DNA from: Candidatus Bathyarchaeota archaeon
GTDB lineage: Archaea > Thermoproteota > Bathyarchaeia > Bathyarchaeales > Bathycorpusculaceae
Direction: 5' to 3'
NCBI GenBank assembly: GCA_963828195.1
Contig: CAWHDT010000005.1
Location: forward strand, 416,001-480,000
Length of the DNA stretch: 64,000 bases
Position 1 is the stretch's first letter; each line of letters starts with the position of its first letter. Shown here in pieces: positions 3,747 to 63,020 of this stretch. Under the pieces are notes generated by a model. It saw nothing but the letters and a program-made list of their open reading frames with translations. It was not told the origin of the DNA and made no database searches. Both the position numbers and the translations under genes were made by a program.

Positions 3747-4010
3747 CAACTTGGCAATAACCAAGCGGAAGAAGAAGAAGAAAAATTGTTTTCACCAGCT
3801 TCTTCTTCTTTTAAAAATAATTTTTTAGATGGCTGCATTAAATCCGGGTTCTTTAGAAGAACAACATTTGAATTTTAGGTGTTGTTGTTCTTTCAAAAAA
3901 AAGTTCTCCAAAGCCGTTCACCCCAAAGATTCAAACCCCAAACCAAAAAAACAACCCAAAACAAGCTCTGAACGTTAATTCGCTACCCTATAGACCTACC
4001 TACTATTTGT
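3747..4010 (+). repeat. modular hairpin repeat R2, copy A (modules M1-M2-M3)
   Basis: GCGGAAGAAGAAGAAGAAAAATTGTTTTCACCAGCTTCTTCTTC hairpin, AAGAACAACA..TGTTGTTCTT hairpin and CCTATAGACCTACCTACTATTTG block, shared with 8505-8570 and 62800-63020. Confidence 0.85.
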
Positions 4011-7364: not shown

Positions 7365-8093
7365 TCACTTGCTTGAACCCAGTTCTTTGATGTAGCCTTC
7401 GACTGCGTCGTCGCTTAACATTTCCATCTTCTTAGATGCGACAGATATGACGGCGATTTTTATTCTTGGAGGCAGCTGCCTTGCGTCCAGAGCCTTGATT
7501 AAGCATTTTACTGCGAGTCTGATGCTGTTTTCCAATGTTAAGTCTTCGCGGTATTCTTCTTTTAGAATTGAAACAACTGTTTCTCTTCCTGCGCCTAATG
7601 CTGTGGCTTTGTAGCCTCTGTATGTTCCGCTTGGATGTGTCCCGAAGACTTTGGTTCCTGTTTTGTTGACTCCTCCGAAAATCAGGGAAACGCCGAATGG
7701 TCTGACTCCTGCATGCTGCGTGTACATTTGTTGGATGTCGCAGATTCGTTTGGTTACGACTTCTACGTCTATGGGTTCGTCGTAGGTTAATTTGTTACTT
7801 TGAGCGTATATCCTTGCTTGGTCGATGAGTATTCGGGCGTCTGAGCTTAAACCCACTATAGCGGCGCCGATGTGGTCGTCTACCCGAAAGATTTTCCATG
7901 AGTAACCTGCTTCTTCAAGGACCTCTATGTTTTCTTCTGACCCGAGGACAAGCCCTTCTGGACATTGGATGCCAAGTATGGTGGCTCCGCGGTTAACTAA
8001 CTCCATTGCGTATTCGACTTGGAAGAGTCGTCCGTCAGGCGAGAAAACTGTTATCGCACGGTCATATGCTCCTGGTGCTGCAAATACTGACAT
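7365..8093 (-). CDS. psmA: proteasome subunit alpha
   Basis: YDRAITVFSPDGRLFQVEYA signature, RPFGVSL. Confidence 0.97.
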   Translation of the reverse strand: MSVFAAPGAYDRAITVFSPDGRLFQVEYAMELVNRGATILGIQCPEGLVLGSEENIEVLEEAGYSWKIFRVDDHIGAAIVGLSSDARILIDQARIYAQSNKLTYDEPIDVEVVTKRICDIQQMYTQHAGVRPFGVSLIFGGVNKTGTKVFGTHPSGTYRGYKATALGAGRETVVSILKEEYREDLTLENSIRLAVKCLIKALDARQLPPRIKIAVISVASKKMEMLSDDAVEGYIKELGSSK

Positions 8094-8232
8094 AACTTAA
8101 CCTCACTTTACACTATACACTTTTTCACAGACTCATATAAAGACTACACTAAAAACCTTTCCTATCAGGGCAAATTCAAGTTTCCCATGAATTCAAGGTT
8201 TCGGCGGCATTTTTCTGCAGAAATTTTGCTGT

Positions 8233-8710
8233 GGGATTTCCGGTTTTGATTTTTTGGATTTTCCAGATCGCGTTCGGTATGTTTTTTGCAGATATTTTTT
8301 AGTTGCGACTTTTGGGCTGGCGTAAGTTGCGACTTTCCGCCTTGGGTCTTTGCGTTTTGGGCTGCTTTTTTGGTTTGGGGTTTGAAGGTGTTTGTGTGTT
8401 GCGACTTTGGGGTGGGCGGATTGCGACTTTCCATGTTGAGTGCATGTTGGAGTTATTGTCGGTTACGGGCGGGATTTTTTGGGTTGCAGCGGCTGTTTTT
8501 CTTCAAAAGAAGAAGAAGCTGGTGAAAACAATTTTTCTTCTTCTTCTTCCGCCTGGTCATTACCACGTTGCTCAACTGAACCCACTTAATAGTTAAAAAT
8601 CTCCATGGAACAAAACCGCCCAGCCATCACCTACGCCAAAAACGGGCACTTACTGTTCAGCCACCCCCAAAAAACCCGATGACATGACCCGGGCTCCAGT
8701 TAGAAGTCAG
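8233..8710 (+). repeat. terminase-derived repeat R1, copy 1 (interrupted by an R2 module)
   Basis: Four TTGCGACTT motifs shared with 17701 and 23040. The 3' part reads LKISMEQNRPAITYAKNGHLLFSHPQKT then a frameshift to DDM. Confidence 0.8.
8505..8570 (-). repeat. R2 copy B (module M1 only)
   Basis: Reverse-complement near-match to 3747-3812. Confidence 0.85.
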
Positions 8711-8791: not shown

Positions 8792-8930
8792 CTAAAGTTT
8801 TTCGTAAATCCAGTTCATGATTGTTTAAAGTGTGTCTTTAGTGAATCCAATGTGTCCAGCTTCGTAGAATCGGGCGCATTTTGGGCTTCCGTGTTCAAGA
8901 AGCAGATAGTAATCTTTTATGGGGAACTCT
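8792..8930 (-). pseudogene. C-terminal fragment of an alpha/beta hydrolase (FrsA/esterase-like)
   Basis: Minus frame reads EFPIKDYYLLLEHGSPKCARFYEAGHIGFTKDTL*TIMNWIYEKL*; internal stop, no start. Confidence 0.5.
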
Positions 8931-9011
8931 GGGGTACTATGTATTGCATACGCTCATAACCACGAGCAGACAAATATCCACAAGTTGCTTGTATGTAAAA
9001 CAGGTGATTGA

Positions 9012-9233
9012 ATGGAACCGATGGATAGAATAACGATCGACCCTGAAGTTATGGTTGGTAAACCAGTCATCAAGGGTACCCGCATCACAGTGCAGCTGAT
9101 TGTTCAACTTTTGGCAAATGGGGCAACAGAAGCTGAAATACTAAATGACTACCCAGACTTGAAAAAAGAAGACATTAAAGCTGCCCTCTTATATGCATCC
9201 GAATGCCTTGGTCGCGAAGTTATTCCTGTTTAA
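9012..9233 (+). CDS. DUF433 antitoxin
   Basis: RITIDPEVMVGKPVIKGTRI...YPDL..EDIKAAL signature. Confidence 0.92.
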   Translation: MEPMDRITIDPEVMVGKPVIKGTRITVQLIVQLLANGATEAEILNDYPDLKKEDIKAALLYASECLGREVIPV

Positions 9234-9242
9234 GCCCAAAAT

Positions 9243-9288
9243 CAACTTGTGATTATCACTGAAAGGAGAATTCGCATAGTTTCATAAT
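9243..9288 (+). pseudogene. possible C-terminal remnant of a DUF5615 PIN toxin
   Basis: QLVIITERRIRIVS* directly after DUF433 resembles the usual C-terminus of its partner toxin. Confidence 0.4.
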
Positions 9289-9527
9289 CGGTCACATTCC
9301 ATGTAGCGCGGACATTACCTCTTATGGAGACACTTTAACCCTCAACTTGTTCCTTTAATTTGTTCTTTTTGTTGTGATTGTGATTATAAAAACAGTTTTT
9401 GTAAAAAACATGTAACGTGAGTTTTGTGATGATTGTGGAGTTCGCTGCGCCCTTTGGGTTTTGCTTTGAGATAGAAACGGAAATTAAGATTTGTGTGTTA
9501 ATATCCTAGAGCGTTTTTGGTGTTGTT

Positions 9528-10250
9528 ATGCCACGTTTTATAGAGGAAAACGTTAGGGGTCAGTTGGTTGCGGCTTTTGAGAACTTGGTTAATCCTGTGG
9601 ATCTTGTTTTCTTTACCCAAAAAGATTGCGCTGCCTGCGTATATCAGGGGGAGCTGTTACGAGAAGTCAGTTCATTATCAAGCAAATTGACCCTGAAAAG
9701 TTATGACTTCGTTTTAAACGGCGATGAAGCTATGAATTACAAAATAGATAAGATTCCGGCAACAGCAGTTGTTGGCAAACGTGACTATAGAATCCGCTTC
9801 TTTGGTTTAACCGCGGGCTTTGAATTTAAAACGCTTATAGAAGACATCATCATGGTCTCGAGCGAACGCACAGGTCTCGACCCAAGACTCGAAATTTTAG
9901 TGAAGGCACTTCCAAATCCAGTGCACCTGCAAGTAATGGCGTCCCTGACTTGTCCACACTGCCCAAAGGCAGTGCAGGCTGCGCATCGCTTCGCTTTTCT
10001 TAACGAAAATATCCGTTCAGACATGGTTGACCTCAGCGTATTTCCCTATATAGCACAAAAATACAACGTAACGGGAACACCTAAGACCATCATAAACGAA
10101 AGCTAATCATTTGTAGGCGCATACCCTGAAGCCGCCCTTTATCTGGAGATACTAAAAGCAGTAGACCCACAGCAATACCAGAAAGTCGTAGAAGAAATCA
10201 CGAAAGAAGCCAACTTAGCTCAGGGCATGAGCACAGCCTACCCACTTTAG
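9528..10250 (+). pseudogene. protein-disulfide oxidoreductase (two thioredoxin folds) with an in-frame TAA
   Basis: CAAC and CPHC motifs. After TAA at 10104-10106 the frame continues SFVGAYPEAALYLEILKAV... to TAG 10250. Confidence 0.8.
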
Positions 10251-16835: not shown

Positions 16836-17621
16836 TTAAGTGACGTAGGCGGGCTTCTTACCTGAACCGGCCATTTGTTCTCTTATTCGACGCTCAATTT
16901 CAACCAATTTCGCAATTGTCTCATCCATTTGCGCCACTTGCTTGTCCATCGGCTCCATATCTACTTTCAAATTCAACATTGAAGACAAAACTTTCAAAGC
17001 CGCCTTCGCCGCCCGGGGATCTATAACGTATTCTCCAGTGGGAGTTTGGTACCCGTGAGTTTCCGCAAGCAAACAGGCTCCTTCCACGTTTTTCTTTTTG
17101 GCAAGACCTGTTATTATGCCGTTTTCGCCACCGATGACTCCATCCTCCAGAAACTGGGCTCCATGCGTTTTAGCTTCTTCAAGTAGAGCTAATGTTGTCG
17201 TGGTACAGTAAACGTTTGGTGCCTCAAAGGGTCTCTCAGTTACGTAGGCTGCAACGGAGTATATTCTCTGCACGCTATTTTTGATTGCCCAATCCAACAC
17301 CGCATCCGCAACCTCGTACTGGCCTTCAGGAGAATAAGCCTGCGAGTTGCCCGTGAGAAAAACGATTGTTCGTCCCGATTCTTCTTTGAATAGGTGGAGT
17401 TCGTTTCGAAGAAGCTCAACAAGTCCGTCTTCTTTAATAACGACAAAGGGCGGAAAATACTTTGAGTAAACTTCCCCAACCAGTTCAGCTTTGAGTTGCT
17501 GAATGAGGTAGTCAACTGAAAGTTTCCCAATGTAAGCTGTTCCAGGCAACCCACACACGAGTATTAATTGATTAGGCGTAAACTCCTTTAGCATTTTGAT
17601 TTCAACACTCATAAGATGCAA
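16836..17621 (-). CDS. PAC2-family proteasome assembly chaperone
   Basis: GLPGTAYIGKL, FPPFV, GQYEVA, CLLAETHG..DPRAAKAAL. Confidence 0.9.
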   Translation of the reverse strand: MHLMSVEIKMLKEFTPNQLILVCGLPGTAYIGKLSVDYLIQQLKAELVGEVYSKYFPPFVVIKEDGLVELLRNELHLFKEESGRTIVFLTGNSQAYSPEGQYEVADAVLDWAIKNSVQRIYSVAAYVTERPFEAPNVYCTTTTLALLEEAKTHGAQFLEDGVIGGENGIITGLAKKKNVEGACLLAETHGYQTPTGEYVIDPRAAKAALKVLSSMLNLKVDMEPMDKQVAQMDETIAKLVEIERRIREQMAGSGKKPAYVT

Positions 17622-17700
17622 ACCAACTTCGATTCAAGATAAGTAGTGACACAAATGAACTTTTTGTTTGAACCCCTGCAGAACACCCAAAAGCACCCGC

Positions 17701-18225
17701 TTTCCAGATCACGTTGGTGTGTTTTTGGCAGATATTTTTAAGTTGCGACTTTTGGGCTGGCGTAAGTTGCGACTTTCCGTTTTGGGTCTTTGCGTTTTGG
17801 GTTGCTTTGGTTGTTTGGGGTTGAAAAGGCTTTGTTTGTTGCGACTTTGGGATGGGCGGATGCGACTTTCCATGTTGAATCTATGTTGACGGCACTGTCG
17901 CGTATGGGCGGGTGCCGGGGGATTCTTTGTTCGCCGGGCAACATGAAAGACCGTGAACACCAACAATTCGACGCCGCCACCAGCACAAACAAAGAAAAGC
18001 TTACACCGGCTAAACCGCCACAGAACAAAACCGTCCAGCAACCCCCCGCCACCGACAAAACCCAACAACTAAACAAACAACAACAACACCTACACCAAAA
18101 AACAAACGCCTAATGTTTAGCCATTCCCAGAACAGCCACGATGACATGACTTGGGCGCTGGCTTGGCAGTTTCGCGGTGCATGCAAACAGGTCTTCTGGT
18201 TGTTGGTGCAGTGCTTCCACACTGA
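17701..18225 (+). repeat. terminase-derived repeat R1, copy 2
   Basis: Highly similar to 23040-23596. The 3' end reads MFSHSQNSHDDMTWALA then a frameshift to AVS...GAVLPH*. Confidence 0.85.
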
Positions 18226-18337
18226 GATAAAGCCGAGCCTTTTCCGTCTCCGCTTTTTAGACTTTTATGTTGCTTTGTAGGTTTTTGTTGCGGCAAAGTT
18301 AAGTAGTACTTTTGTTAAGTTGTACTTGTGTTAAGGC

Positions 18338-18565
18338 ATGACTGAAGTTGTAGTTACCAGGAAGGGGCAGGTAACCATACCCATAGAGATAAGAAAAAAG
18401 TTTGGCATAGAGGAGAGCTCAAAAGTAGAGATTGTTGAGCAAAACGGCATGATCGTGATTAAAAAGCGCCCGAGCATTTTTGATTTGGCAGGCAGCGGCG
18501 CTGGAAAAGGCAACGTTGCCGAGTTGAAAAAGATGCTGGATCAAATGAGGGACGAAGATGCCTGA
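18338..18565 (+). CDS. AbrB/MazE-family antitoxin
   Basis: VTRKGQVTIPIEIRKKFGI; overlaps vapC. Confidence 0.92.
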   Translation: MTEVVVTRKGQVTIPIEIRKKFGIEESSKVEIVEQNGMIVIKKRPSIFDLAGSGAGKGNVAELKKMLDQMRDEDA

Positions 18566-18947
18566 CAGGCGTCTATATGACACCCGCTTTTTTGTTGAGT
18601 ACTTCTACAGCGAGGATGGAGAGCGTTTAAGAAAGCTCAAGGAGGAATTGCGGTTAGTTAAGGAAAGGATGGTTTCATCATTAACCGTCCATGAGATTCA
18701 CCGCATCAATTTTCTGCGGCAGGGAAAAGATGTTGCAGACCTTAGAAGCAGCACGATAAGACGCGACTTTAAAGTCATCGACGTCGATTACCAGACAGCA
18801 ATAAAAAGTGCGGAAATAAGAACCAAACACAAAATGCCAATGGCTGACAGCGTAATCGCAGCAACAGCCCAAATCTATGAATGCACCCTATTTTCAGACG
18901 ACAATCACTTTAAAGAAATAGAGAACCTAAAAACAAAATGGTGCTAA
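18558..18947 (+). CDS. vapC: VapC PIN-domain toxin
   Basis: YDT, E, ADSVIAATA, SDD.HF acidic residues intact. Confidence 0.92.
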   Translation: MPDRRLYDTRFFVEYFYSEDGERLRKLKEELRLVKERMVSSLTVHEIHRINFLRQGKDVADLRSSTIRRDFKVIDVDYQTAIKSAEIRTKHKMPMADSVIAATAQIYECTLFSDDNHFKEIENLKTKWC

Positions 18948-18994
18948 ATGACCTTATTCACCCAATCGCTCAGTTATCGCACATTTGCCGCTGT

Positions 18995-19097
18995 CCAGCA
19001 ACTGAATAAACAACCAATATACCTACACCAAAAACAGAGACCTACAATAATGCCACCGCAAAACAGCCTCAACATGATTTGTGCGCTATCGCTCTTT
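18995..19097 (+). repeat. terminase-derived repeat R1, short copy 4
   Basis: Frameshifted QQLNKQ/YTYTKNRDLQ/PQNS/NMICALSL; homologous to the 3' ends of copies 2 and 3. Confidence 0.65.
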
Positions 19098-19156
19098 GAG
19101 AAGCAGCTTTTTCAAATTTATAAGACGCTTCCTGCATTCATATCAAGTAGTGATCT

Positions 19157-19378
19157 TTGATGGCGAAGACAGTACACTTAGATGAGGAAGATCGTAAACT
19201 TCTCGCTGAAACCAAGCAAAAGCTCGATGAAGCAACCAAGCTTATGGGGGAACGGATGGAAACCTTCGAAATTTTAAGCGACCCCGAAATGGTAAAAGCC
19301 ATAGAGGAAGGGCAAGCAGACATTAAAGCTGGAAGAGTAAAAGAGTTACGGACACTTCTAAAGGAAGACGCCTGTTGA
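19157..19378 (+). CDS. RelB/Phd-like antitoxin
   Basis: ETFEILSDPEMVKAIEEGQADIKAGRV C-terminal antitoxin motif. Confidence 0.75.
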   Translation: MMAKTVHLDEEDRKLLAETKQKLDEATKLMGERMETFEILSDPEMVKAIEEGQADIKAGRVKELRTLLKEDAC

Positions 19379-19425
19379 AACCCAAGTGCACGGTTGTTTT
19401 ATCCAGACAAGCAGAGCATTTCTAG
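19375..19425 (+). pseudogene. N-terminal stub of a RelE/ParE toxin
   Basis: TTG overlapping the antitoxin stop, reads MKPKCTVVLSRQAEHF*; ends at the helicase stop codon. Confidence 0.55.
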
Positions 19426-21695
19426 CCTTCCAGCATCACTAAAAGCCTTTTCAGAATTATGCTTGCTGCTTTCTTGTCTAAGGGTTTGTTTTCGTTTCCG
19501 CATTTGGGCGAGTAGATGCATGAGGGACAACCGTCTTTGCACTCGCAATTCTCAATCAGCTCTAAGGTTTTTTCGAGTAAGGGTTTTATGTTTTGGTAGA
19601 GGTTTTCTGAAATTCCGATCCCGCCTTCAAAGCCGTCATAAATGAAAATCGTTGGGTTCCCCGTGTCCGGATGCAGAGGAGTCGATAAGCCTCCAATGTC
19701 CCATCGGTCACACATCGCAAAAATCGGCGACATCGCAATCATCGCATGCTCAACCGCGTGAATTCCCCCGTCAAAATCGAGCTCGCCATCTTCGATTTCC
19801 CTCTTGATCTCCTCAGGAATAATAAACCACATGCCAACCGTTGAAAACGATAACGGCGGGAGATTAAGCGGTTTTCTCTCAACAACCTCATCATATGATT
19901 TGGTGACATAGGTGTGGTAAAATTCCGTTGTAATTAATTCGCCTAAGCCAACCTGGATTCCGATTTGTTTTTCTTCAAGAGTTCTCTTTATGGCGACATC
20001 AACGGTTTTTAGTGCTTCCGTGTAGTAGTTGACGTTTTCCTGTGTGACTTTAGCTGTTAATTTGTTGAGGTCTAATTCTTCAGAGATGTAAGTTTCGCCC
20101 TGATGAAGCAAAACTGCGCCCGCGTATGCTTCCTCGTAGGCCTTGTTTAAGGAGAGGGTTTCAAGTACGGTTCCGTTACAGGTTACGGTGACGGTTTTGT
20201 CGGAGATACTCTCCAACGTTACAACCTCGACAGGCCTTGCAGTTCCCGAATAGACGTATCCCCTCGGCGTTTTGCGAACCAGATTTTGTCGTTCCAGAGC
20301 TTGAACGCTTTCTTGGAATAGTTCGGGGAAATATTTTTTGTCGGCCTCTGTCAGGGGCAGCTCGCTTGCCGCACACATAATGTGCCCCAAAGAAATGTAG
20401 CGGTTATGCAAATCAATAATGGCTTGTTCATGTGACCTTCCAAAGAAGTCTTTGGGATGCTTCATGAAGTATTGGTCAAGAGGGTTCTGAAAAGCAACCA
20501 GCGTTACAAGTGAATCTGCGTTGGTTCTGCCTGCTCTTCCCGCCTGCTGCCAAGTCGATATGACAGTTCCCGGGTAACCAGAGATAATCACTGAATCCAA
20601 AGAACCAATATCGATGCCCAATTCGAGTGCGTTGGTTGACACAACACCGATCAAGCTTTTTGTCTTTAGCCTGTTCTCTATTTCCCGCCGTTCTTGAGGC
20701 AGATAACCTGCTCGGTAAGCTGTAACGGAGTTGGCTAGTTTTGGTGATCTTTTTTTGAGGTCTTCTTTGGTCCATCTTGTTATAAGCTCAGCCATTTGGC
20801 GGGATGTTGTAAAGCAGAGGGTTTGGAGGTTTTTTGTGATGTTTAGGGTTAGGAGGTCTTTGGTTTCTTGATGAGTGGATCTTCGTGTGGTGTTGGTGTC
20901 GTCGATGAATGGTGGGTTCCAGAAGAGGAATGATTTTTTTCCTCTTGGGGCGCCGTCGTTTGAGATGATTTCGAAGTCTTTTCCCGTCAGTTTCTTGGCG
21001 TGTTCTTGGGGGTTTGCGATGGTGGCTGATGAGAGGATGATTTGTGGGTCGGCGTGGTAATAATTGCATACTCTCATAAGACGTCTTAGGAGCATGGCTA
21101 CGTTTGAGCCAAATACGCCGCGGTAAACGTGGGCTTCATCGATTATGACGAATTTGAGGTTTCCAAGAAAGCTTCGCCACTTATAGTGCCATGGAAGGTA
21201 CTGGTGGAGCCCATATGGGTTGCTTAAGATGATTTTACTGTTTTCTCTTATGTTTGCCCTTTGACTTTGAGGAGTATCACCATCGTAAACGTTAGGGTAA
21301 GCTTGGATGCCCGTTTCTTTTTCCAGTTCTCTTAGAACCTTTAGCTGGTCATTTGTGAGCGCCTTAGTCGGGTAAAGGTAAAGTGCAGTCGCTTTGGGAT
21401 CTTTTGTGAGAGCTTCGAGGACAGGAATGTTGAAAGCTAAGGTTTTTCCTGAAGCTGTCGGAGTGACAATCGCCACGTTCTTGCCCGCTCTTGCTTTGTT
21501 TATGGCTTCAGCCTGATGCGAATAAAGATGGATGTCTCGGGTCAATAAGCAATTTTGAATATTTTGCGGCAGGGATTTTTCTAACTCGCCAAAACATGCT
21601 TCGTGCGGGGGAATTTCTTGTATGTGCACTATCTGTTTTTTGTAGCCTTGCATGTGCTTTATGCTTCGGATAAAGTCGTCTATCAAAGGTTCCAC
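19422..21695 (-). CDS. DEAH-box helicase with DUF1998 (MrfA/SftH/Hrq1 family)
   Basis: PTASGKT, DEAH, SAT, QQAGRAGR and C-terminal CECKDGCPSC. Confidence 0.95.
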   Translation of the reverse strand: MEPLIDDFIRSIKHMQGYKKQIVHIQEIPPHEACFGELEKSLPQNIQNCLLTRDIHLYSHQAEAINKARAGKNVAIVTPTASGKTLAFNIPVLEALTKDPKATALYLYPTKALTNDQLKVLRELEKETGIQAYPNVYDGDTPQSQRANIRENSKIILSNPYGLHQYLPWHYKWRSFLGNLKFVIIDEAHVYRGVFGSNVAMLLRRLMRVCNYYHADPQIILSSATIANPQEHAKKLTGKDFEIISNDGAPRGKKSFLFWNPPFIDDTNTTRRSTHQETKDLLTLNITKNLQTLCFTTSRQMAELITRWTKEDLKKRSPKLANSVTAYRAGYLPQERREIENRLKTKSLIGVVSTNALELGIDIGSLDSVIISGYPGTVISTWQQAGRAGRTNADSLVTLVAFQNPLDQYFMKHPKDFFGRSHEQAIIDLHNRYISLGHIMCAASELPLTEADKKYFPELFQESVQALERQNLVRKTPRGYVYSGTARPVEVVTLESISDKTVTVTCNGTVLETLSLNKAYEEAYAGAVLLHQGETYISEELDLNKLTAKVTQENVNYYTEALKTVDVAIKRTLEEKQIGIQVGLGELITTEFYHTYVTKSYDEVVERKPLNLPPLSFSTVGMWFIIPEEIKREIEDGELDFDGGIHAVEHAMIAMSPIFAMCDRWDIGGLSTPLHPDTGNPTIFIYDGFEGGIGISENLYQNIKPLLEKTLELIENCECKDGCPSCIYSPKCGNENKPLDKKAASIILKRLLVMLEG

Positions 21696-22981
21696 TCCTC
21701 ATAAAGCTTGGAAAATAATGTTCCGAGGGTTAGCAGGTCTTGCCGGTTGTGCTCAACAATTGCGACGAGCGGTCCAGCATTTTTTGTTCTCAAGTAAGTT
21801 TCGTAGAAGTGAGGAACCAAGGCGCCCGGAATGTTGATGTCTCGCTTTATTCCGATGTATTGTTCGACGGTTTCTAGTTTACAATCCGCTAGTTTGTGAC
21901 GCAGTGCCCGTCTGGTGAAGTGGAGAACATCAAAATGCGGGTTATCCAGCGGCGCATCTAACCCATAGTAAGCTAATCTTTGCTTAATGTATGGAATATC
22001 AAAGCTTCTGCCATTATAGGTTATGAGTGACAAGTTGGGTTCAAGCTGCGAAATAAGCGCCCAAATCGCGCTGGGTTCATCCTGAATGTCTCTTAGCAAA
22101 AACTGGCTTGTGCAAACATGAGTTTTGGCTGGTTTAGCTATGCCTAGTAGAATTATGGGTCGCTCTGACAGCCCTAAGGTTTCGATGTCTACGATGGCGA
22201 AGTCTTGATCTTGGCAGAACCCGGCTAAATAATGAAGCAGCGGATGCGATTTGGGGAAGCGTTGCCATAGCCATTTTTGAATTTGGGGGATTTCTTTTTT
22301 GTTTATTATTTTCATGAAGTCATGGGCTTGTTTTTTCCAAAGGGGGTGATTTTCAAGGTCTACTATTGTTGTGTATCCTTGTTGTTTTAGGGTTTGTTCG
22401 CGTGCAGGTCCTATTCCGGGAAGAGCTTTCAGGTCTGAGATGATTTGTTGTCTGCTTTCCTGGTAAGTTGCTTTTTTAAAGGCAGAAATGCGCGAAGCTG
22501 AGATGTGGTAACATTCTCCCTGTTGATTTGAAACAATCTCGCCAGCTATGGCGTCTTGGAGGTTTTTGCCTTCGTATTGTTTGATGAGTTTCTTTTCAAG
22601 GTTCAATGCCTCGTCGTATTCGCTGCTCCAAATCCAGCTTTCAACCGCCGATTCAGCGGGGTGTTCCGTGGTTTTTTCTGTTTCAGAAATTACCTCATAC
22701 TCTTTTGAACGAGCAATTCTCTCGCTTAGACTTTCAGCCGCCCGTGTCAACGCGATTTTTTCTTTGAAAGAACCATTCTCGCCAATTGCGGAAGCTTGAT
22801 TGCCAAAGCTTTTTTGAGCCAACATTTGAGCATAACGGTCATCCCTAAAACTTCGCAGCAGAAAAGAACCGCACACCTTGCAAAACCTGCTCTGCTCATA
22901 CTCCAGATTCGAATAGGTTTTGTTGCACTTTCTGCAAACGTATTCTATTGGCAATTTATGTTCTGCCTTAAGTCTGTGCAA
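21683..22981 (-). CDS. RNase H-like exonuclease (YprB/MrfB family) with N-terminal zinc ribbon and HhH
   Basis: DIETLGL, TYNGRSFDIP, HFD, HNRQD; CRKC..CKVC; PGIGP. Confidence 0.9.
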   Translation of the reverse strand: MHRLKAEHKLPIEYVCRKCNKTYSNLEYEQSRFCKVCGSFLLRSFRDDRYAQMLAQKSFGNQASAIGENGSFKEKIALTRAAESLSERIARSKEYEVISETEKTTEHPAESAVESWIWSSEYDEALNLEKKLIKQYEGKNLQDAIAGEIVSNQQGECYHISASRISAFKKATYQESRQQIISDLKALPGIGPAREQTLKQQGYTTIVDLENHPLWKKQAHDFMKIINKKEIPQIQKWLWQRFPKSHPLLHYLAGFCQDQDFAIVDIETLGLSERPIILLGIAKPAKTHVCTSQFLLRDIQDEPSAIWALISQLEPNLSLITYNGRSFDIPYIKQRLAYYGLDAPLDNPHFDVLHFTRRALRHKLADCKLETVEQYIGIKRDINIPGALVPHFYETYLRTKNAGPLVAIVEHNRQDLLTLGTLFSKLYEEWNL

Positions 22982-23039: not shown

Positions 23040-23596
23040 GGGATTTTTCAGTCTTAATTTTTTTAGATTTTCGAGATTTCGTTGGTGGGTTTTTGCAGAT
23101 ATTTTTAAGTTGCGACTTTTGGGCTGGCGTAAGTTGCGACTTTCCGCTCTGGGTCTTTGCGTTTTGGGTTGCTTTGGTTGTTTGGGGTTGGAAGGCGTTT
23201 GCGGGTTGCGACTTTAGGATGGGCGAATGCGACTTTCCATGTTGAATCTATGTTGACGGCACTGTCGCGTACGGACGGATGCCGAGGATCCTTTGTTCGC
23301 CGGGCAACATGAAAGACCGTGAACACCAACAATTCAGCGCCGCCACCCAGCACAAACAAAGAAAATCTCACACCAGCTAAACCACCACAGAACAAAACCG
23401 CCCAGCCACCCCCACCACCGCCAACCACGCCAACAACAAAACAAACAACAACACACCCACACCAAAAACAAACACCTACAACCTCAGCCACCCGCAAAAC
23501 AGCCACAACAACATGACATAGGCACTAACTTTAGCGGTTTCCTGCAGTATGCAGGTGCCTCCTACGGGTGCAGGAGTTGTAATGCTTGCACACTAA
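23040..23596 (+). repeat. terminase-derived repeat R1, copy 3
   Basis: Four iteron motifs. The 3' end reads NKQQHTHTKNKHLQ/SHPQNSHNNMT*ALTLAVSCSMQVPPTGAGVVMLAH*. Confidence 0.85.
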
Positions 23597-23646
23597 AGGA
23601 AAGGATTACGCCCTGTCGAGATATTATAAAACAAAGTCTAATCACA

Positions 23647-23692
23647 CTGCTTCTTACAAGGCAGCCGCTCTACTGGGCTGAGCTGTCAAGGC
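23647..23692 (-). pseudogene. degenerate 5' half of tRNA-Thr(TGT)
   Basis: GCCTTGACAGCTCAGCCCAGTAGAGCGGCTGCCTTGTAAGAAGCAG: D arm GCTC/GAGC, anticodon loop CTTGTAA, no T arm. Confidence 0.65.
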
Positions 23693-23758
23693 ACCAGATT
23701 CCACCAACAAATAAAAACCAACCCAAATAAAAGTCACTCTTAAAGTTATCAGACTGTG

Positions 23759-25267
23759 CTATGGAAAAAGAGCCTCTACGTTAATCTTCAAATAATCGCC
23801 CTCTTTCTCAACAAATCCAGAGAATTCCAAACTATTTACCGCAGCCAATACATTGATGCTTCCGTCGATTTCCGCGATTTTCTCACGGAGATTTGCAATA
23901 TCTTGCTTTCTTTCTGATAAATAATACAAAACCATTGCGGATATGAAATCTTCTTTTTCAATTTTAGTACGCTTAAAGTGTTCCATGAGTTTTTTTGTAA
24001 TTTTACCTAATTTGGTAAGCACTTGCCTATTTTCAAGTTGCTTTAAGAGAATGAATTTCGCTATTAGTTTGCGAGCACCAGGACTAGATTGCAGCCCAAA
24101 AGTTCTAGCGAAGTTTCTGCGGACAACAGTCTCAATTTTTGTAACCAATTTTGTTTCCACATTTTGACTTTCGTTTAGTATAACCTTGAATTTTTCTTTT
24201 GCACATTGAATAAGCTCGGAATTCTTGCTAACAAAAGCCGATTCGGTATTCTCTCGCCAGTACCCTTTTGTTGTGTGAAAGCCCAAATTCATCTTGTTGA
24301 GGTTTATCGAACTAACTACCAACGCTTTATCAGTTAACAGAAGCTTTGCATGTAATTCTTGATTGGTTATCCTCACGTCTATTCCATGCGCTAAAAGATC
24401 ACGAAGCATATTTTCCGTTCTATCGGTAAAATCCATGCTTGTACCACCAGTTAATATGGTAATTTGTATCTTTTTATTTACAGCAGTTGCAACTAGAAAT
24501 TCACAAAAGTCAGTGTCAGTAAATGTTTCTGTAGAAATATATGCATACTGATCAGCATTATCGATTAAGCCGTTCAGCAGTTCACGCCCAATACAATCGA
24601 AGGGCGTCAGGTATAGCTTTTCAAGAATATCTTGACTAGATGCGCATATTTCCAAAGGATATTCTCTAATCCAATGATCAATGTGCTCTTTTCCAATATT
24701 TTTGGGCAACTCAAAAATCTTGCCGTTTTGATCCGGTTTTGCTTGAAATATTTTTTCCTTTACCGAACCATCTGAAGAGCCGTTTCTCAACACAAAAAGA
24801 TTGATCAACCGATCAAATTGATTGTTTAACTCCTTTATTCTCGTTTCATCGTTTTTAAAGACAATCATCGCATCTAATTCTTGTTCTTCAGTTAAGTTAG
24901 CGGATAATACAATAGCACTCTTCTCAGTAACTATGAATTTACCATGGAAGGAATACCATCTTCCGACTGCAGTTGTGGTTCTACTGGGATCACCGATATT
25001 CCATCTATCGAAGTAAAATATCGCACCATTTTTCTGCAATTCACTTAACAGCGGCTCCACCCTTGACCTAATATCTCGGTTAATACTATCAAATGGGAGC
25101 GTGAAAATTTCTATTTTTAACCCTTCGGCAAGTTTTTTGTTAAGGCTGTCGATTACCGCTTTGTTGTGTAATTGAAAAATTGCAATACGAACATATTTTT
25201 CAGCTGAGTATATTTCTTTAATAATTGATGGAATGACGTTGATACTGAAGTCAAAGTTGATAGACAC
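23759..25267 (-). CDS. phospholipase D-family nuclease with two HKD-like motifs, putative restriction endonuclease
   Basis: HGKFIVTE..SANLT and HAKLLLTD..SSINL; AT-rich; follows a DNA methyltransferase. Confidence 0.75.
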   Translation of the reverse strand: MSINFDFSINVIPSIIKEIYSAEKYVRIAIFQLHNKAVIDSLNKKLAEGLKIEIFTLPFDSINRDIRSRVEPLLSELQKNGAIFYFDRWNIGDPSRTTTAVGRWYSFHGKFIVTEKSAIVLSANLTEEQELDAMIVFKNDETRIKELNNQFDRLINLFVLRNGSSDGSVKEKIFQAKPDQNGKIFELPKNIGKEHIDHWIREYPLEICASSQDILEKLYLTPFDCIGRELLNGLIDNADQYAYISTETFTDTDFCEFLVATAVNKKIQITILTGGTSMDFTDRTENMLRDLLAHGIDVRITNQELHAKLLLTDKALVVSSINLNKMNLGFHTTKGYWRENTESAFVSKNSELIQCAKEKFKVILNESQNVETKLVTKIETVVRRNFARTFGLQSSPGARKLIAKFILLKQLENRQVLTKLGKITKKLMEHFKRTKIEKEDFISAMVLYYLSERKQDIANLREKIAEIDGSINVLAAVNSLEFSGFVEKEGDYLKINVEALFP

Positions 25268-25359: not shown

Positions 25360-26598
25360 TTACAGAAGTTCCCTTTGCTTTCCAACAATCTTACTTCTTT
25401 GCCAAATATCGTCGAGATGCGCGGTAAACCGGTAGTAATCACGTAGTTGGTGTATGCTGTCAGACGCTCTTGGAACAGCCAAACGGCAATTAATTAATTT
25501 CACATGTGCGGGGTCAATTTCTATTCCAATTGAGTTTCTTTTTAGCTGTTTTGCAACCACTAAAGCAGTGCCCGTCCCCGCAGTTGGATCAAATACCACA
25601 TCGCCTTGATGAGATGAGGATAGAATTATTCTCAAAAGTAACGCTACTGGCGTTTGTTGAACATGTATTCTCTTGCCACTTTCGTCCCTTAGTGCTTCAT
25701 CTCCAGCAAAATATCCGGATGTTAGTTCTCTAATATCATCCCACACATCTGTTAAATAAACGCCATTTTCGTGTTGGTATTTGTGCTCGGGTAAAGGCGG
25801 TGGATCTATTCGCACTTTGTTAAAAACTCTTGGCTTATTCCCTTTAATGGCATATACAATTATCTGATACTGTTTTGAAAACCTTGTTTCAATGGGAACA
25901 GCAGACGTCTTTTTTTTCCAAATGATTAGATTTTGGAAATTCCAACCAGTTTCTCTTAATATTTTGAGTATGATTTCAGCATTTTTTTCCCTATGCATGA
26001 AATATATACATCCACCGTCTGAGGTGTTTTTGTAAACGCCTTCTATAATTGCTTTTATCCAGTTCCAGTATTTGTCAACCGATTGATTATCATCGAAAAA
26101 TCGATATTCTTTGCCTTGGAGATAAGGTGGGTCAAAAAAAGTAAGATGTACGGTACCAACAGTTCCTTTGTTGAGATGTTCTATGCAGTCACCTTCAAGC
26201 ATTTTATACCAAGTTTTATTTTGCTCAAAATCATTTTCAGGTTCTGAGATACAATCATTTACTTCGGTATTGCTTGCTGTACTTAGCTTTGGCTGTTCAT
26301 CTAATATTTCCGTGGACTCAGAGATAGAGGGCACATGCTCCAGCCCGTTTAATTTAACTTCAAATCCATTTTCATTTCTTGTTACGATAACCTCAGAATT
26401 AATTGGAAATTTACTTTTCAATAATTTAGAACAACGAAGTCTTCCTTCTTTATCCCATTCAGCCGGTTCATCATTTAGTTTTGTGGTAAAGGGTGGCGTT
26501 AAACCTTGCAAAAGTTCCAGTCTGTTTTCAACTGGTATGTAAATGAATCCTATTTCGACTTCTTTCTTTTTCAGTACCTTTGTGACCATAGTCACCAA
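25360..26598 (-). CDS. N4-C/N6-A DNA methyltransferase (beta class) with an extra N-terminal domain
   Basis: DPPY precedes VFDPTAGTGT; ~125-aa N-terminal extension. Confidence 0.92.
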   Translation of the reverse strand: MVTMVTKVLKKKEVEIGFIYIPVENRLELLQGLTPPFTTKLNDEPAEWDKEGRLRCSKLLKSKFPINSEVIVTRNENGFEVKLNGLEHVPSISESTEILDEQPKLSTASNTEVNDCISEPENDFEQNKTWYKMLEGDCIEHLNKGTVGTVHLTFFDPPYLQGKEYRFFDDNQSVDKYWNWIKAIIEGVYKNTSDGGCIYFMHREKNAEIILKILRETGWNFQNLIIWKKKTSAVPIETRFSKQYQIIVYAIKGNKPRVFNKVRIDPPPLPEHKYQHENGVYLTDVWDDIRELTSGYFAGDEALRDESGKRIHVQQTPVALLLRIILSSSHQGDVVFDPTAGTGTALVVAKQLKRNSIGIEIDPAHVKLINCRLAVPRASDSIHQLRDYYRFTAHLDDIWQRSKIVGKQRELL

Positions 26599-28249: not shown

Positions 28250-29095
28250 TTGGCGTTTCTCGTAACCAAAGCAGACGGATCCAAACAATCGTTTAACAGA
28301 GAAAAAATCGTTCAGACATGCTTGAGAATGGGCGCAGACAGCTACATCGCTAATGAAGTTGCGGAGCGGGTTGAAAGAAGACTTTACGAAGGCATAACTA
28401 CAGAGGCGATTCTTAAGCTTATTTTCACGTATATGAGGAAATACCGGCCTGCTGTCAGCCACCTTTACGACTTAAAACGGGGTATAAGCCTGATGGAGCC
28501 CAAGCCGGAGTTTGAATTGTTCATACAGGTTTTGTTGGCGCACACCGGTTTTGAGGTCACGCCTAATCAGGTTCTCAGGGGGAAATGCGGGGAACATGAG
28601 GTGGATGGCATTGCAAGGAAGGACGGAGTCACCTACTTTGTTGAGGTTAAACATCATTTAAGCTACCACGCCTTAACGGGGCTGGATGAAAGCCGAATAG
28701 CTTGGGCAGTGCTCGAAGACGTTACAGACGCCTTCTCGCTTGGCTTAACAGACCTAAAAATTGACCGCGCCGTTATAGTCACCAACACCAGATACTCGGA
28801 ACATGCAATACGGTACGGCAAATGCAAAAACCTCATACAGATAGGATGGACTTCACCTGAACACTTCGGATTAAGAGAAGCCATTGAAAAAAACAAGTTA
28901 TACCCGTTAAGCTGCCTTAGAGGAGTAAGCGTTGAAGCAAGGCAGAGGCTGGTTAACTCGGGGATAGTTCTCATAAAACAGTTGCTTAACCAAGACAGAT
29001 TGACAATTGAAAGGAAAACAGGATTATCCCAAGCAACCGTGCTATCGATCATGGAAGAGGCCAGACACAGCGCAAACACGCTTTGGGACTTTTAG
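28250..29095 (+). CDS. ATP-cone plus Mrr-like PD-(D/E)XK nuclease domain protein
   Basis: VTKADGSKQSFNREKI ATP cone; FE...EVDGIA...VEVKHH. Confidence 0.88.
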   Translation: MAFLVTKADGSKQSFNREKIVQTCLRMGADSYIANEVAERVERRLYEGITTEAILKLIFTYMRKYRPAVSHLYDLKRGISLMEPKPEFELFIQVLLAHTGFEVTPNQVLRGKCGEHEVDGIARKDGVTYFVEVKHHLSYHALTGLDESRIAWAVLEDVTDAFSLGLTDLKIDRAVIVTNTRYSEHAIRYGKCKNLIQIGWTSPEHFGLREAIEKNKLYPLSCLRGVSVEARQRLVNSGIVLIKQLLNQDRLTIERKTGLSQATVLSIMEEARHSANTLWDF

Positions 29096-34800: not shown

Positions 34801-35176
34801 TTAGACGATTCTTATGTTGTCTTTGCCAACATTGGCGAGTTTTTGATCCCTCGTTAACAATACTTCATCGTGTGCCAGTGAAATGCCCGCGATAAGCAAA
34901 TCGTTCTCATTGACCGTTCTTCCAGCATCCTGTAATTTTTCAAAAAGGAGGGCGGCTTCTTTGGCGGCGGCTCTGTCGAAAGAGTAAACCGCTGCTCCAG
35001 ACAGGAACCTTTCAGCCGCTTGTTTCTTTATTTTAACCTTGTGCCTGAGCAATTCATACTCAGTTATCGTTGTGGTTTTGACGTCTTCTTTCGTGGAGAG
35101 TTCTCTCATTAAAGCAACAATTTTTTGGTCGCCAGTCAAAGAAATCTATTATGACGCTGGTATCGAGAAGTGTCAC
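34801..35176 (-). pseudogene. vapC: VapC toxin with a 1-nt frameshift near the 5' end
   Basis: GTG at 35176 gives MTLLDTSVIIDF, then an extra T before LTGDQKI...DLLIAG..LLTRD; span is 376 nt. Confidence 0.8.
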
Positions 35177-35400
35177 TCAAATGTCCGTCCGTAATTTGCT
35201 TCTCTTTCTGCGGCTATTTGGGCTTTCAACCGCTCAAGTTCTTCTTTATCATCCTTTAAGATGCCCGCTAAGCTCATAATATCAAATTTTTCTTCTTTGT
35301 GACAGAGGCTTTCTTTAATTACCTGCGAAAAACTCTTCTTGCCTTTTCGTTTTAAGAGCAGTTCGTAGACTTCGTTTGAGACTGAAATCTGTCTTGCCAT
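35173..35400 (-). CDS. VapB-family antitoxin
   Basis: RQISVSNEVYELL...KSFSQVI; overlaps the vapC start. Confidence 0.88.
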   Translation of the reverse strand: MARQISVSNEVYELLLKRKGKKSFSQVIKESLCHKEEKFDIMSLAGILKDDKEELERLKAQIAAEREANYGRTFE

Positions 35401-41676: not shown

Positions 41677-41976
41677 ATGCAAAAGCTTGAAGACATAAGA
41701 GCCAAACTGGAAAAGCTCAAGCCAGTCCTAAAAGAGCGATACCAAGTGGAAACCATAGGGTTCTTTGGTTCCTATGCCCGCGGAGAGCAAAACAAAAAAA
41801 GCGACGTGGATGTTCTTGTGGAGTTTTCTCAGCCCAACACGATTGACCTCTTAGACTTCATTGAGCTTGAAGAATTTTTAAGCAAAAAACTCGGGATCAA
41901 AGTAGATCTAGTTACGAAAAATGCTCTTAAGCCAATGATTAAAGACCAGATATTGAAAGAGACGATTTATGCTTGA
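41677..41976 (+). CDS. minimal nucleotidyltransferase (MNT) antitoxin
   Basis: FGSYARGEQ...SDVDVLV. Confidence 0.93.
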   Translation: MQKLEDIRAKLEKLKPVLKERYQVETIGFFGSYARGEQNKKSDVDVLVEFSQPNTIDLLDFIELEEFLSKKLGIKVDLVTKNALKPMIKDQILKETIYA

Positions 41977-42323
41977 AGCGAACCTATCGGCTTTATCTAA
42001 ACGATATTTTGGAAGCCATAGAAAGAATAGAAAACTATGTAGAAGGAAGGACTTTCGAGGAATTCTCGAAGAATACTCTTGTTATAGATGCCGTGGTGAG
42101 GAATTTTGAAATTATCGGCGAAGCAACAAAACACATACCTTCAGAAGTAAAGTCAGAACATCCGCTTATTAAGTGGAAAGAAATGGCGGGGATGCGAGAT
42201 AAATTGGCTCACGAATATTTTGGGGTAAACATCGAGATTCTGTGGAAAACAGCAAAGAACCGTTTGCCTGTTTTAAAGCCCTTAATCGAAGAGCTTTCAA
42301 AAAATAGTGAAGAAACAATGTAA
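41973..42323 (+). CDS. HEPN (DUF86) toxin
   Basis: EIIGEA and RDKLAHEY (RX4HXY). Confidence 0.93.
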   Translation: MKRTYRLYLNDILEAIERIENYVEGRTFEEFSKNTLVIDAVVRNFEIIGEATKHIPSEVKSEHPLIKWKEMAGMRDKLAHEYFGVNIEILWKTAKNRLPVLKPLIEELSKNSEETM

Positions 42324-62799: not shown

Positions 62800-63020
62800 T
62801 TGATTTAAACCCTAAACCAGAAAAACAACCGCAAACAAGCCCTGACCAAAAACCGCGCCTACCTATAGACCTACCTACTATTTGCGCCAAAAAACCAACA
62901 CAAATATGGAAGGCGGAAGAAGAAGAAGAAAAATTGTTTTCATCAGCTTCTTCTTCTTCTTTTGAAATATTGCCAAGAAGAACAACAGTTGCTCTCCGGG
63001 TGTTGTTGTTCTTTCAAAAT
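62800..63020 (+). repeat. modular hairpin repeat R2, copy C (modules M3-M1-M2)
   Basis: Same three blocks as 3747-4010 in permuted order. Confidence 0.85.

Follow-up and report, generated by a model that had tools for sequence, protein, structure and literature searches.

The stretch of DNA considered here, referred to as the window, comprises 64,000 nucleotides (nt) from a Candidatus Bathyarchaeota archaeon (contig CAWHDT010000005.1 of assembly GCA_963828195.1, positions 416,001 to 480,000). It is archaeal chromosome, carrying an exosome superoperon (psmA, SBDS, Rrp4, Rrp41, Rrp42, L37ae and Pcc1), two PAC2 genes, genes for a TFS-like zinc-ribbon protein, HMG-CoA reductase and Nre, and one tRNA-Asp. 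Beside psmA, beside a PAC2 gene and beside an operon headed by an RNase_H_2-like gene lies a copy of a repeat, R1, the first part of which is an element of about 215 nt that we call L and that is the main subject of this work; a toxin-antitoxin (TA) pair, abrB-vapC, follows the second copy. A sequence-only reading of the region had reported R1 repeats in direct orientation, and alignment confirmed three such copies: 17701-18232 and 23069-23603 are 83% identical over 540 aligned nt (copies 2 and 3), and 8260-8473 and 17701-17912 are 86% identical over 214 nt (copies 1 and 2). Copy 1 shares with the others just these first ~214 nt plus a later piece of 85 nt. R1 falls into two unlike parts, the G+T-rich L followed by the A+C-rich, lineage-specific segments M and T, with top-strand G+T contents of 71–77% in L and 14–37% in M/T. 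The features are as follows.

7365-8093, minus strand: psmA, the core gene next to L copy 1.
8278..8491, plus strand: L copy 1 (nhmmer E 2.9e-55), 209 nt upstream of psmA and directed away from that gene.
8491..8570, no strand assigned: GAAGAAGAAG...CTTCTTCTTC hairpin repeat between L and T of copy 1, in place of M.
8626..8710, plus strand: T core of copy 1 (nhmmer E 3.2e-19).
16836..17621, minus strand: PAC2 proteasome-assembly chaperone gene (PF09754, E 1.1e-44), the core gene diverging from L copy 2.
17716..17930, plus strand: L copy 2 (nhmmer match 17720-17913, E 2.5e-52; G+T 0.75), 121 nt upstream of the PAC2 start and pointing away from PAC2.
17931..18032, plus strand: M segment, an A+C-rich linker (G+T 0.26) common only to copies 2 and 3.
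18033..18165, plus strand: T core of copy 2, A+C-rich and non-coding (nhmmer E 4.2e-34).
18166..18268, plus strand: T extension of copy 2, directly 3' of the T core.
18338..18565, plus strand: abrB, an AbrB/MazE-type antitoxin gene (PF04014, E 2.1e-13; TIGR01439, E 1.9e-11).
18558..18947, plus strand: PIN-domain (VapC-type) toxin gene (PF01850, E 3.5e-15).
18971..19100, plus strand: T' core, repeating the T core in direct orientation (nhmmer E 2.9e-31), 23 nt past the vapC stop.
19160..19378, plus strand: gene of a 72-aa Phd/RelB-like small protein, highly conserved in Bathyarchaeia.
19375..19425, plus strand: open reading frame (ORF) of 16 codons that overlaps the antitoxin-like stop and ends against the helicase stop codon; too short for a family test.
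21683-22981, minus strand: RNase_H_2-like gene, the operon head next to L copy 3 (Pfam, NCBIfam).
23087..23287, plus strand: L copy 3 (nhmmer E 1.1e-54), 128 nt upstream of the RNase_H_2-like gene.
23400..23603, plus strand: T core and T extension of copy 3 (alignment, nhmmer).

L contains four direct copies of TTGCGACTTT spaced by 24, 72 and 21 nt. In copy 2 these sites lie at 17743, 17767, 17839 and 17860, the last reading TGCGACTTT, and within the window the motif is confined to R1 except for one match with a single mismatch at 9567. The strand pointing away from the operon holds five runs of at least four T, and a TATA-like TTTTTAA abuts site 1. A two-site L motif pattern was scanned over a collection of genome contigs and returned at least 116 stretches (numbered with an L prefix below), so that all copy numbers are lower bounds. 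An nhmmer profile built on 24 copies places L in at least 32 loci (32 of the 116 fetched) from at least 11 Bathyarchaeia assemblies, one of which has at least seven L loci; among the matches listed, the best ones to the window copies have 74–82% identity. In the 24-copy alignment the four sites do not vary (24/24), nor do a few other blocks, while the spacers vary in sequence at constant length. Site 2 is a perfect palindrome with six-base arms, GAAAGT-TGCG-ACTTTC. The left boundary of the element is fuzzy and T-rich and the right one ragged, and the truncated copies L041, L048, L067, L018, L020 and L109 all keep the two operon-proximal sites. RNAalifold predicted 22 pairs for the 24 copies, none of which (0/22) is backed by a compensatory change (covariation term +0.07); both strands of R1 fold no better than shuffled sequences (z +0.43 and -0.02), and no Rfam family matches R1. 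A structured RNA was rejected on these grounds, the fold z-scores lying near 0 on both strands. Invariant sites and length-conserved spacers free of covariation thus fit protein-binding DNA rather than RNA.

Every record with an L locus is assigned to Bathyarchaeota or Bathyarchaeia with the exception of L039 (DATHCJ010000038.1), titled Candidatus Limnocylindrales bacterium. This contig has a full L element and genes for archaeal TFIIB and SUI1, and on the core side its flank shows homology to two Bathyarchaeota loci; it probably represents archaeal DNA that was placed in a bacterial bin. The pattern also matched eight contigs of one proteobacterial assembly, JAEZKX01 (L003, L011, L021, L027, L031, L055, L071 and L096), all with a fixed match length of 30 nt, which suggests an unrelated repeat family of that genome. 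In the literature, listings and the opening lines of abstracts named no L-like element in Bathyarchaeia or other archaea, and the motif strings retrieved only primers and unrelated sequences there.

The position of L relative to genes was determined in 23 loci with annotated flanks of about 2 kb; L032, with a partial L, was dropped, and eight loci of at most 728 nt were not annotatable. In 20 of the 23, and at all three window copies, the gene by the site-1 end runs on the other strand and has its start facing L, and L points away from the head of a core operon just as often (20/23 and 3/3). The diverging core genes are those of TFE (four loci), SUI1/aIF1 (three, one by flank homology only), rpoH, rpoB and L3 (two each), and further L22, secE-nusG-L11-L1, HSP20-L15-secY, psmA, FKBP, an Fe-ADH_2 gene and an M48 peptidase, with psmA, PAC2 and the RNase_H_2-like/helicase operon as the diverging neighbours of the window copies. 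The same loci are occupied across assemblies: four for TFE, three for SUI1, and two each for psmA, rpoH, rpoB, L3 and the PolB side. Core genes retain a conserved BRE/TATA-like stretch (BRE, transcription factor B recognition element) of their own, within ~70 nt of the start codon and between L and the gene, and the sequence separating L from the gene start is unalignable except for each gene's own conserved promoter.

The two sides of L behave differently when orthologous loci are compared. Fourteen locus pairs, representing seven locus types, share 1.7–1.96 kb of aligned core-side flank, whereas their far sides are unrelated or nearly so in all 14; the far-side alignment amounts to 0 nt in ten pairs and to 75–200 nt in four, and these short stretches are tRNA or an extension of L. 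Homologous far sides also occur beside unrelated core sides, as in L036 and L070 (904 nt at 89% identity, carrying a TumE gene) and in L026 and L052 of a single genome (2.4 kb aligned), and window copies 2 and 3 likewise share M and T beside unrelated core sides. TA families (PIN, PemK, TumE, AbiEii, HicB, CcdA-like and DUF433/DUF5615) are found on the far side in 12 of the 23 loci and on the core side in none, oriented with L in four cases and against it in eight. Rfam detected a same-strand tRNA no further than 500 nt from L in 4 of 24 loci, and a T-loop motif is present at +287 to +528 in 8 of 29. The suggestion of the sequence-only reading that R1 serves as a recurrent anchor where cargo is gained or swapped holds in this broad sense, L sitting at a synteny breakpoint with 14 of 14 far sides differing. 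Identical cargo at orthologous loci, which that reading had named as speaking against it, was not seen, the far sides of the 14 pairs being unrelated or nearly so.

Separately from these counts, tRNA-like sequences with a canonical T-arm and acceptor 3' end were noticed ~+230 to +560 after L in L015, L019, L026, L045, L056 and L116. Their Rfam scores are low, partial or absent, and some share a stretch of 56–110 nt at 80–95% identity across loci; they may be intron-bearing tRNAs or tRNA 3' fragments.

A maximum-likelihood tree was constructed from the 24 L copies. Genome labels require 9 changes on this tree, against a mean of 16.2 for shuffled labels (0/200 shuffles as low); the three window copies form one clade (support 97/85), and copies from the same locus type (TFE, psmA) do not group. 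L copies therefore cluster by genome and not by locus, which implies gene conversion among copies or recent spread.

The reading that we favour, and to which we give about an even chance, is that L, conserved at operon heads, binds a protein there and, as a dispersed repeat, doubles as a recombination breakpoint with turnover of selfish cargo. The anatomy, conservation, position, concerted evolution and flank turnover of L are direct observations, from which we infer the protein binding, any regulatory role and the recombination route. L would be an array of sites for a sequence-specific, probably dimeric, DNA-binding protein, and selection would hold it immediately 5' of the promoters that serve core operons for information processing and proteostasis, pointing outward, with a presumed regulatory or insulating role. 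Copies dispersed round the chromosome would exchange sequence within a genome and so evolve in concert, and chromosomal rearrangements and insertions would end at the operon-distal edge of L, so that the tRNA, TA and restriction-modification DNA beyond this edge would turn over fast while the operon side stays fixed. In the source genome, the T repeats would add a local route for the gain or loss of abrB-vapC, since T copies bracketing this pair are the product expected of a T-bearing piece inserted or excised by recombination between T copies.

Several observations weigh against this reading. Three of the 23 loci (L010, L036 and L070) have no diverging core gene, and the distance from L site 1 to the predicted start codon varies widely, from 20 to 603 nt, whereas archaeal activator sites adjoin the BRE/TATA. 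The blocks between the L sites are conserved as well, which a plain set of binding sites does not require. As the core side starts inside an operon, synteny is to be expected there, and the asymmetry between core and far sides is therefore suggestive rather than controlled; similarly, the TA enrichment was judged only against the core side and a rough density in the window (5 TA loci per 64 kb). All relatives are metagenome-assembled genomes, one of them (L039) bearing a bacterial label. Finally, the binding protein is itself putative, binding and regulation by L being predicted from the sequence.

Two kinds of known system resemble L as pictured in the favoured reading. Arrays of upstream activator sites are found at stable-RNA and ribosomal-protein promoters, exemplified by the Fis sites of E. 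coli and the Ptr2 sites of Methanocaldococcus. L shares with them several motif copies at fixed mutual spacing upstream of translation and transcription operons and tRNA genes, and its repeated, invariant, partly palindromic sites keep this spacing in all 24 copies, as in a cis-regulatory array. Side and orientation relative to the promoter are constant (in the same 20 of 23 loci and all window copies); L differs from such arrays in its variable promoter distance, in the conservation of the whole 200-nt block including spacers, and in that its cognate factor and any activation are putative. Bacteria also have dispersed intergenic repeats that carry protein-binding sites, namely repetitive extragenic palindromes and bacterial interspersed mosaic elements (REP/BIME), enterobacterial repetitive intergenic consensus (ERIC) sequences and Correia elements. 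These are, like L, multi-copy non-coding intergenic families that are homogenised within a genome, can influence neighbouring transcription and can serve as recombination substrates. In contrast to them, L is not palindromic overall, forms no hairpin, is much longer than REP, keeps one orientation relative to operons of a particular class, and is found at the same loci across species.

The second half of R1 is of much narrower distribution. M has no match among the 116 fetched loci listed, and outside the window T was found in only two of them, L037 and L043, among the matches listed. T occurs four times in the window, one of these occurrences (T') corresponding solely to the right end of R1, and two of them bracket abrB-vapC. 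The likeness of T' to T1, T2 and T3 is above chance, as each of 4 comparisons gave a local alignment score that 0 of 500 dinucleotide shuffles attained; the similarity is hence not a by-product of composition. L043 is orthologous to window copy 1 at the psmA locus (psmA protein 91% identical; promoter stretch 8100-8164 84.6% identical). The gap between L and T there measures ~1.7 kb, including an ATPase_2/DUF234 gene, as against ~130 nt in the window; a T-extension piece lies ~105 nt upstream of this gene and a T core ~107 nt downstream. The window T extension (18212-18266) has 75% identity to L043 +351..+409, and window 8629-8670 is 85.7% identical to the T core 3' of the ATPase_2 gene. The order T extension, cargo, T core is thus seen twice, with abrB-vapC in the window and with ATPase_2/DUF234 in L043, whereas in copy 2, copy 3 and L037 the T core is followed directly by the T extension. 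In L037 (67% identity over 215 nt to window 18063-18268), L and T are followed by a CcdA-like/PIN pair in a layout like that of the window. The sequence after T' is not a T extension. Two other origins were considered and discarded: T or its extension as the remains of a tRNA region (neither resembles the tRNA-bearing flanks of 19 loci) and M/T as the decayed 3' end of the L043 ATPase_2 gene (tblastx gives DNA-level T matches only).

The cargo of copy 2 had been described as an intact AbrB/VapC pair, and both Pfam matches and an overlap of 8 nt between the two genes bear this out. In domains, gene order and overlap it agrees with type II TA systems of the VapBC kind, and we regard it as a standard VapBC-type pair with predicted toxicity and neutralisation. 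Its vapC has 515 homologues, the best non-self match being 91% identical. A second TA module with a truncated relE had been proposed after the short tail formed by T', and this is weakly supported. The 72-aa ORF weakly resembles Phd/RelB antitoxins: it has 411 homologues (74–99% identity among the 120 listed), some of which one source names PHD/YefM antitoxin, together with a weak PDB match to RelB (E 0.087 over 28 residues). In Pfam it matches DUF2683 only, below the cut-off (E 0.007), and it matches no NCBIfam antitoxin family. Unlike RelBE and Phd-Doc modules, it is followed by no toxin gene beyond the ORF of 16 codons, which exists as proposed and may be a toxin (RelE) remnant. A further difference is that conservation of the antitoxin-like gene far exceeds that of vapC, the closest relatives of the former among the 120 listed being 96–99% identical as against 91%. 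This difference is a further hint that abrB-vapC may be the variable piece of the locus, though differing evolutionary rates of the two proteins could also account for it.

Other explanations of R1 have been advanced or can be formulated, one being that its copies derive from the 3' end of a phage terminase gene and persist as decoys or antisense sequence in association with toxins. The repeat does contain long open frames (107–133 aa among the listed ORFs, up to 139 aa from stop to stop), but no tool supports a terminase. None of 23 stop-to-stop frame pieces matched PHROG at E up to 0.01, the frame translations gave no significant Pfam family (the sole match, SfLAP at E 0.0019, is below its cut-off) and no NCBIfam match, and blastn of window 17690-18330 against 50,697 phage records returned nothing. 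When 83 window ORF translations were scanned against Pfam, no terminase, integrase, recombinase (including PF00589) or transposase catalytic family was found among them. Between copies 2 and 3, moreover, a 1-nt indel disrupts the sole long frame of the plus strand, and tblastx between R1 and L037 gives similarity in all six frames, so that what these two share is likeness of DNA alone. Rather than a gene fragment, R1 is a non-coding repeat of composite build; the terminase reading is already contradicted and retains next to no probability, the antiviral decoy or antisense idea falls with it, and of the claim that terminase tails bracket abrB-vapC, the bracketing by direct T copies stands while the identity of the tails does not. 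A non-coding repeat could still be transcribed. In that case L and T, read in the direction of the core operon and of the cargo respectively, would be A+C-rich unstructured 5' leaders or small RNAs with a site for an RNA-binding regulator, or, as a variant, the T-tract-rich strand would act as a one-way transcription stop. The sharp strand asymmetry of L and M/T favours this, since it leaves the sense strand of the faced gene A+C-rich and without T runs, as do the five T runs of the outward strand and the TATA-like sequence abutting site 1. The core genes, however, keep their own BRE/TATA-like stretch between L and the gene, and neither a structure or covariation signal nor an Rfam match was obtained, so that we consider the two variants jointly to be unlikely. 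Still less probable, in our view, is that L is a non-autonomous element resembling miniature inverted-repeat transposable elements, which inserts upstream of strong promoters, always the same way round, and whose copies are similar because of recent bursts of transposition. Clustering of copies by genome, the presence of several copies per genome (at least seven loci in one assembly) and the joint occurrence of L and a far flank at different core loci (L036/L070, L026/L052) would agree with such an element; its occupation of the same loci in different species (TFE in four assemblies, SUI1 in three, others in two each), its fuzzy T-rich left boundary and ragged right end, the lack of a transposase among the 83 window ORFs, and a window repeat search that reported no terminal inverted repeats at the R1 ends all speak against it.

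The arrangement of T raises the further question of a cassette system, in which T, with L as the platform end, would be the site of dedicated site-specific recombination of cassettes composed of T extension, cargo and T core, the recombinase being encoded elsewhere. In its favour are the recurrence of this order with two different cargoes, the contiguous core and extension in copy 2, copy 3 and L037 (the permutation expected of a circular piece joined at the core/extension boundary), the orthologous psmA locus with cargo in L043 and none in the window, and the window-like layout of L037. The units nevertheless number just two, and the same layout could arise if T extension and T core were the non-coding upstream and downstream parts of a gene unit that ordinary recombination duplicates along with its flanks. 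Added to this are the rarity of T among the fetched loci, the missing T extension after T' and the unbiased orientation of the TA cargo. The sequence-only reading had called the array integron-like with no integrase in the window; the latter holds for the 83 ORFs, whereas an integron-like mechanism finds no support. According to PMC9668308, integrons and clusters of attC sites lacking integron-integrases (CALINs) are recognized by at least two attC sites less than 4 kb apart, each with a conserved single-strand hairpin fold, and integron cassette arrays and CALINs are reported also in Archaea. The likeness lies in small promoter-poor genes, often TA, separated by a repeated non-coding site near a fixed platform, and in one cargo unit bracketed by direct repeats; the two units of the window also share an orientation. 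The differences are that the 64-kb window has no IntI gene, that only two T copies lie within 4 kb of each other (T2 and T', ~0.9 kb apart), that across loci the cargo is oriented both ways (4 same, 8 opposite), that the platform is a core operon head and not an integrase gene, and that T lacks the attC-defining hairpin. Single-stranded DNA folds of the four T copies (8 folds) gave z-scores of -1.1 to +1.5 and no shared hairpin; T as an attC site was accordingly rejected, the weak, G-U-dependent pairs of a three-sequence RNAalifold prediction being discounted. An element integrated at a tRNA fits no better, the window having no integrase and no tRNA at 23520-23720 while relatives have a tRNA beside L. 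The tRNA fragment that had been placed at copy 3 could be recovered neither by Rfam at E up to 10 nor by ARAGORN with introns allowed. We therefore judge dedicated site-specific recombination at T to be improbable, and a shade more doubtful still is the wider proposal that L and T together form an undescribed Bathyarchaeia cassette platform at the heads of essential operons, at which an unknown recombinase or homologous recombination captures, swaps and loses units.

Further genes lie beyond the L-bearing operon heads of the window.

9012-9233, plus strand: DUF433 gene, antitoxin-like (PF04255, E 6.8e-27).
23759-25267, minus strand: phospholipase D (PLD)-like nuclease gene (PF13091, E 2.1e-25), on the far side of R1 copy 3.
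25360-26598, minus strand: N6_N4 DNA methyltransferase gene (PF01555, E 9e-45), on the far side of R1 copy 3.

The PLD/methyltransferase pair noted at copy 3 is thus confirmed by Pfam for both genes. For copy 1, a hydrolase fragment followed by DUF433 had been noted. The DUF433 gene is well supported, whereas the fragment (8828-8953, minus strand) has a weak PDB match to the C-terminus of an Ayg1-type hydrolase (E 0.006) and no Pfam match. The DUF433 gene has no partner downstream, because 9233-9530 holds stop codons; at an rpoB locus with a short L, a DUF433 gene 73% identical to it is paired with a DUF5615 PIN-like gene (L020:2007-2597:-). The operon with L copy 3 at its head (19422-22981, minus strand) encodes, besides the RNase_H_2-superfamily protein, a DEAH helicase that has a zinc-binding domain of MrfA type and matches TIGR03817 at E 8e-239, slightly below the model cut-off. 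Selfish or defence genes are also present remote from R1, comprising a VapB/PIN pair (34801-35400), an MNT/HepT pair (41677-42323) and an Mrr-type endonuclease with an ATP-cone domain (28250-29095). Two families of hairpin-forming intergenic repeats were seen in addition, one delimited by GAAGAAGAAG...CTTCTTCTTC (3747-3820, 8491-8570 and 62911-62974) and the other by AGAAGAACAACA...TGTTGTTCTT (3855-3898 and 62976-63019). One copy sits exactly between L and T of R1 copy 1 and the others in the exosome superoperon and between convergent genes; by appearance they look like terminators or small mobile hairpins.

Among the core genes of the relatives, the rpoH of two Bathyarchaeia assemblies (L045:2321-2878:+ and L057:2114-2665:+), encoding the Rpb5 C-terminal domain, has an N-terminal Mrr_cat / NA-iREase1 restriction-endonuclease-like domain, and this extension of an archaeal RpoH may be relevant to how the N-domain of eukaryotic Rpb5 arose. 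At L057:32-893:+, the gene for ribosomal protein L3 is split into two ORFs, which reflects either a frameshift or a misassembly.

Bathyarchaeia are abundant archaea that have not been cultured, and to our knowledge nothing is known of their gene regulation. Should the cassette interpretation prove true, it would constitute a gene-capture system differing from integrons, in which adjacency to indispensable genes would shield small selfish or defence genes from deletion. On the favoured reading, the presence of L at the heads of RNA polymerase, TFE, ribosomal-protein, aIF1, proteasome and exosome operons would open a direct route to what may be a master regulator of the core machinery, and an element that marks breaks in gene order and collects TA genes provides a testable case of dispersed repeats shaping archaeal genome plasticity.

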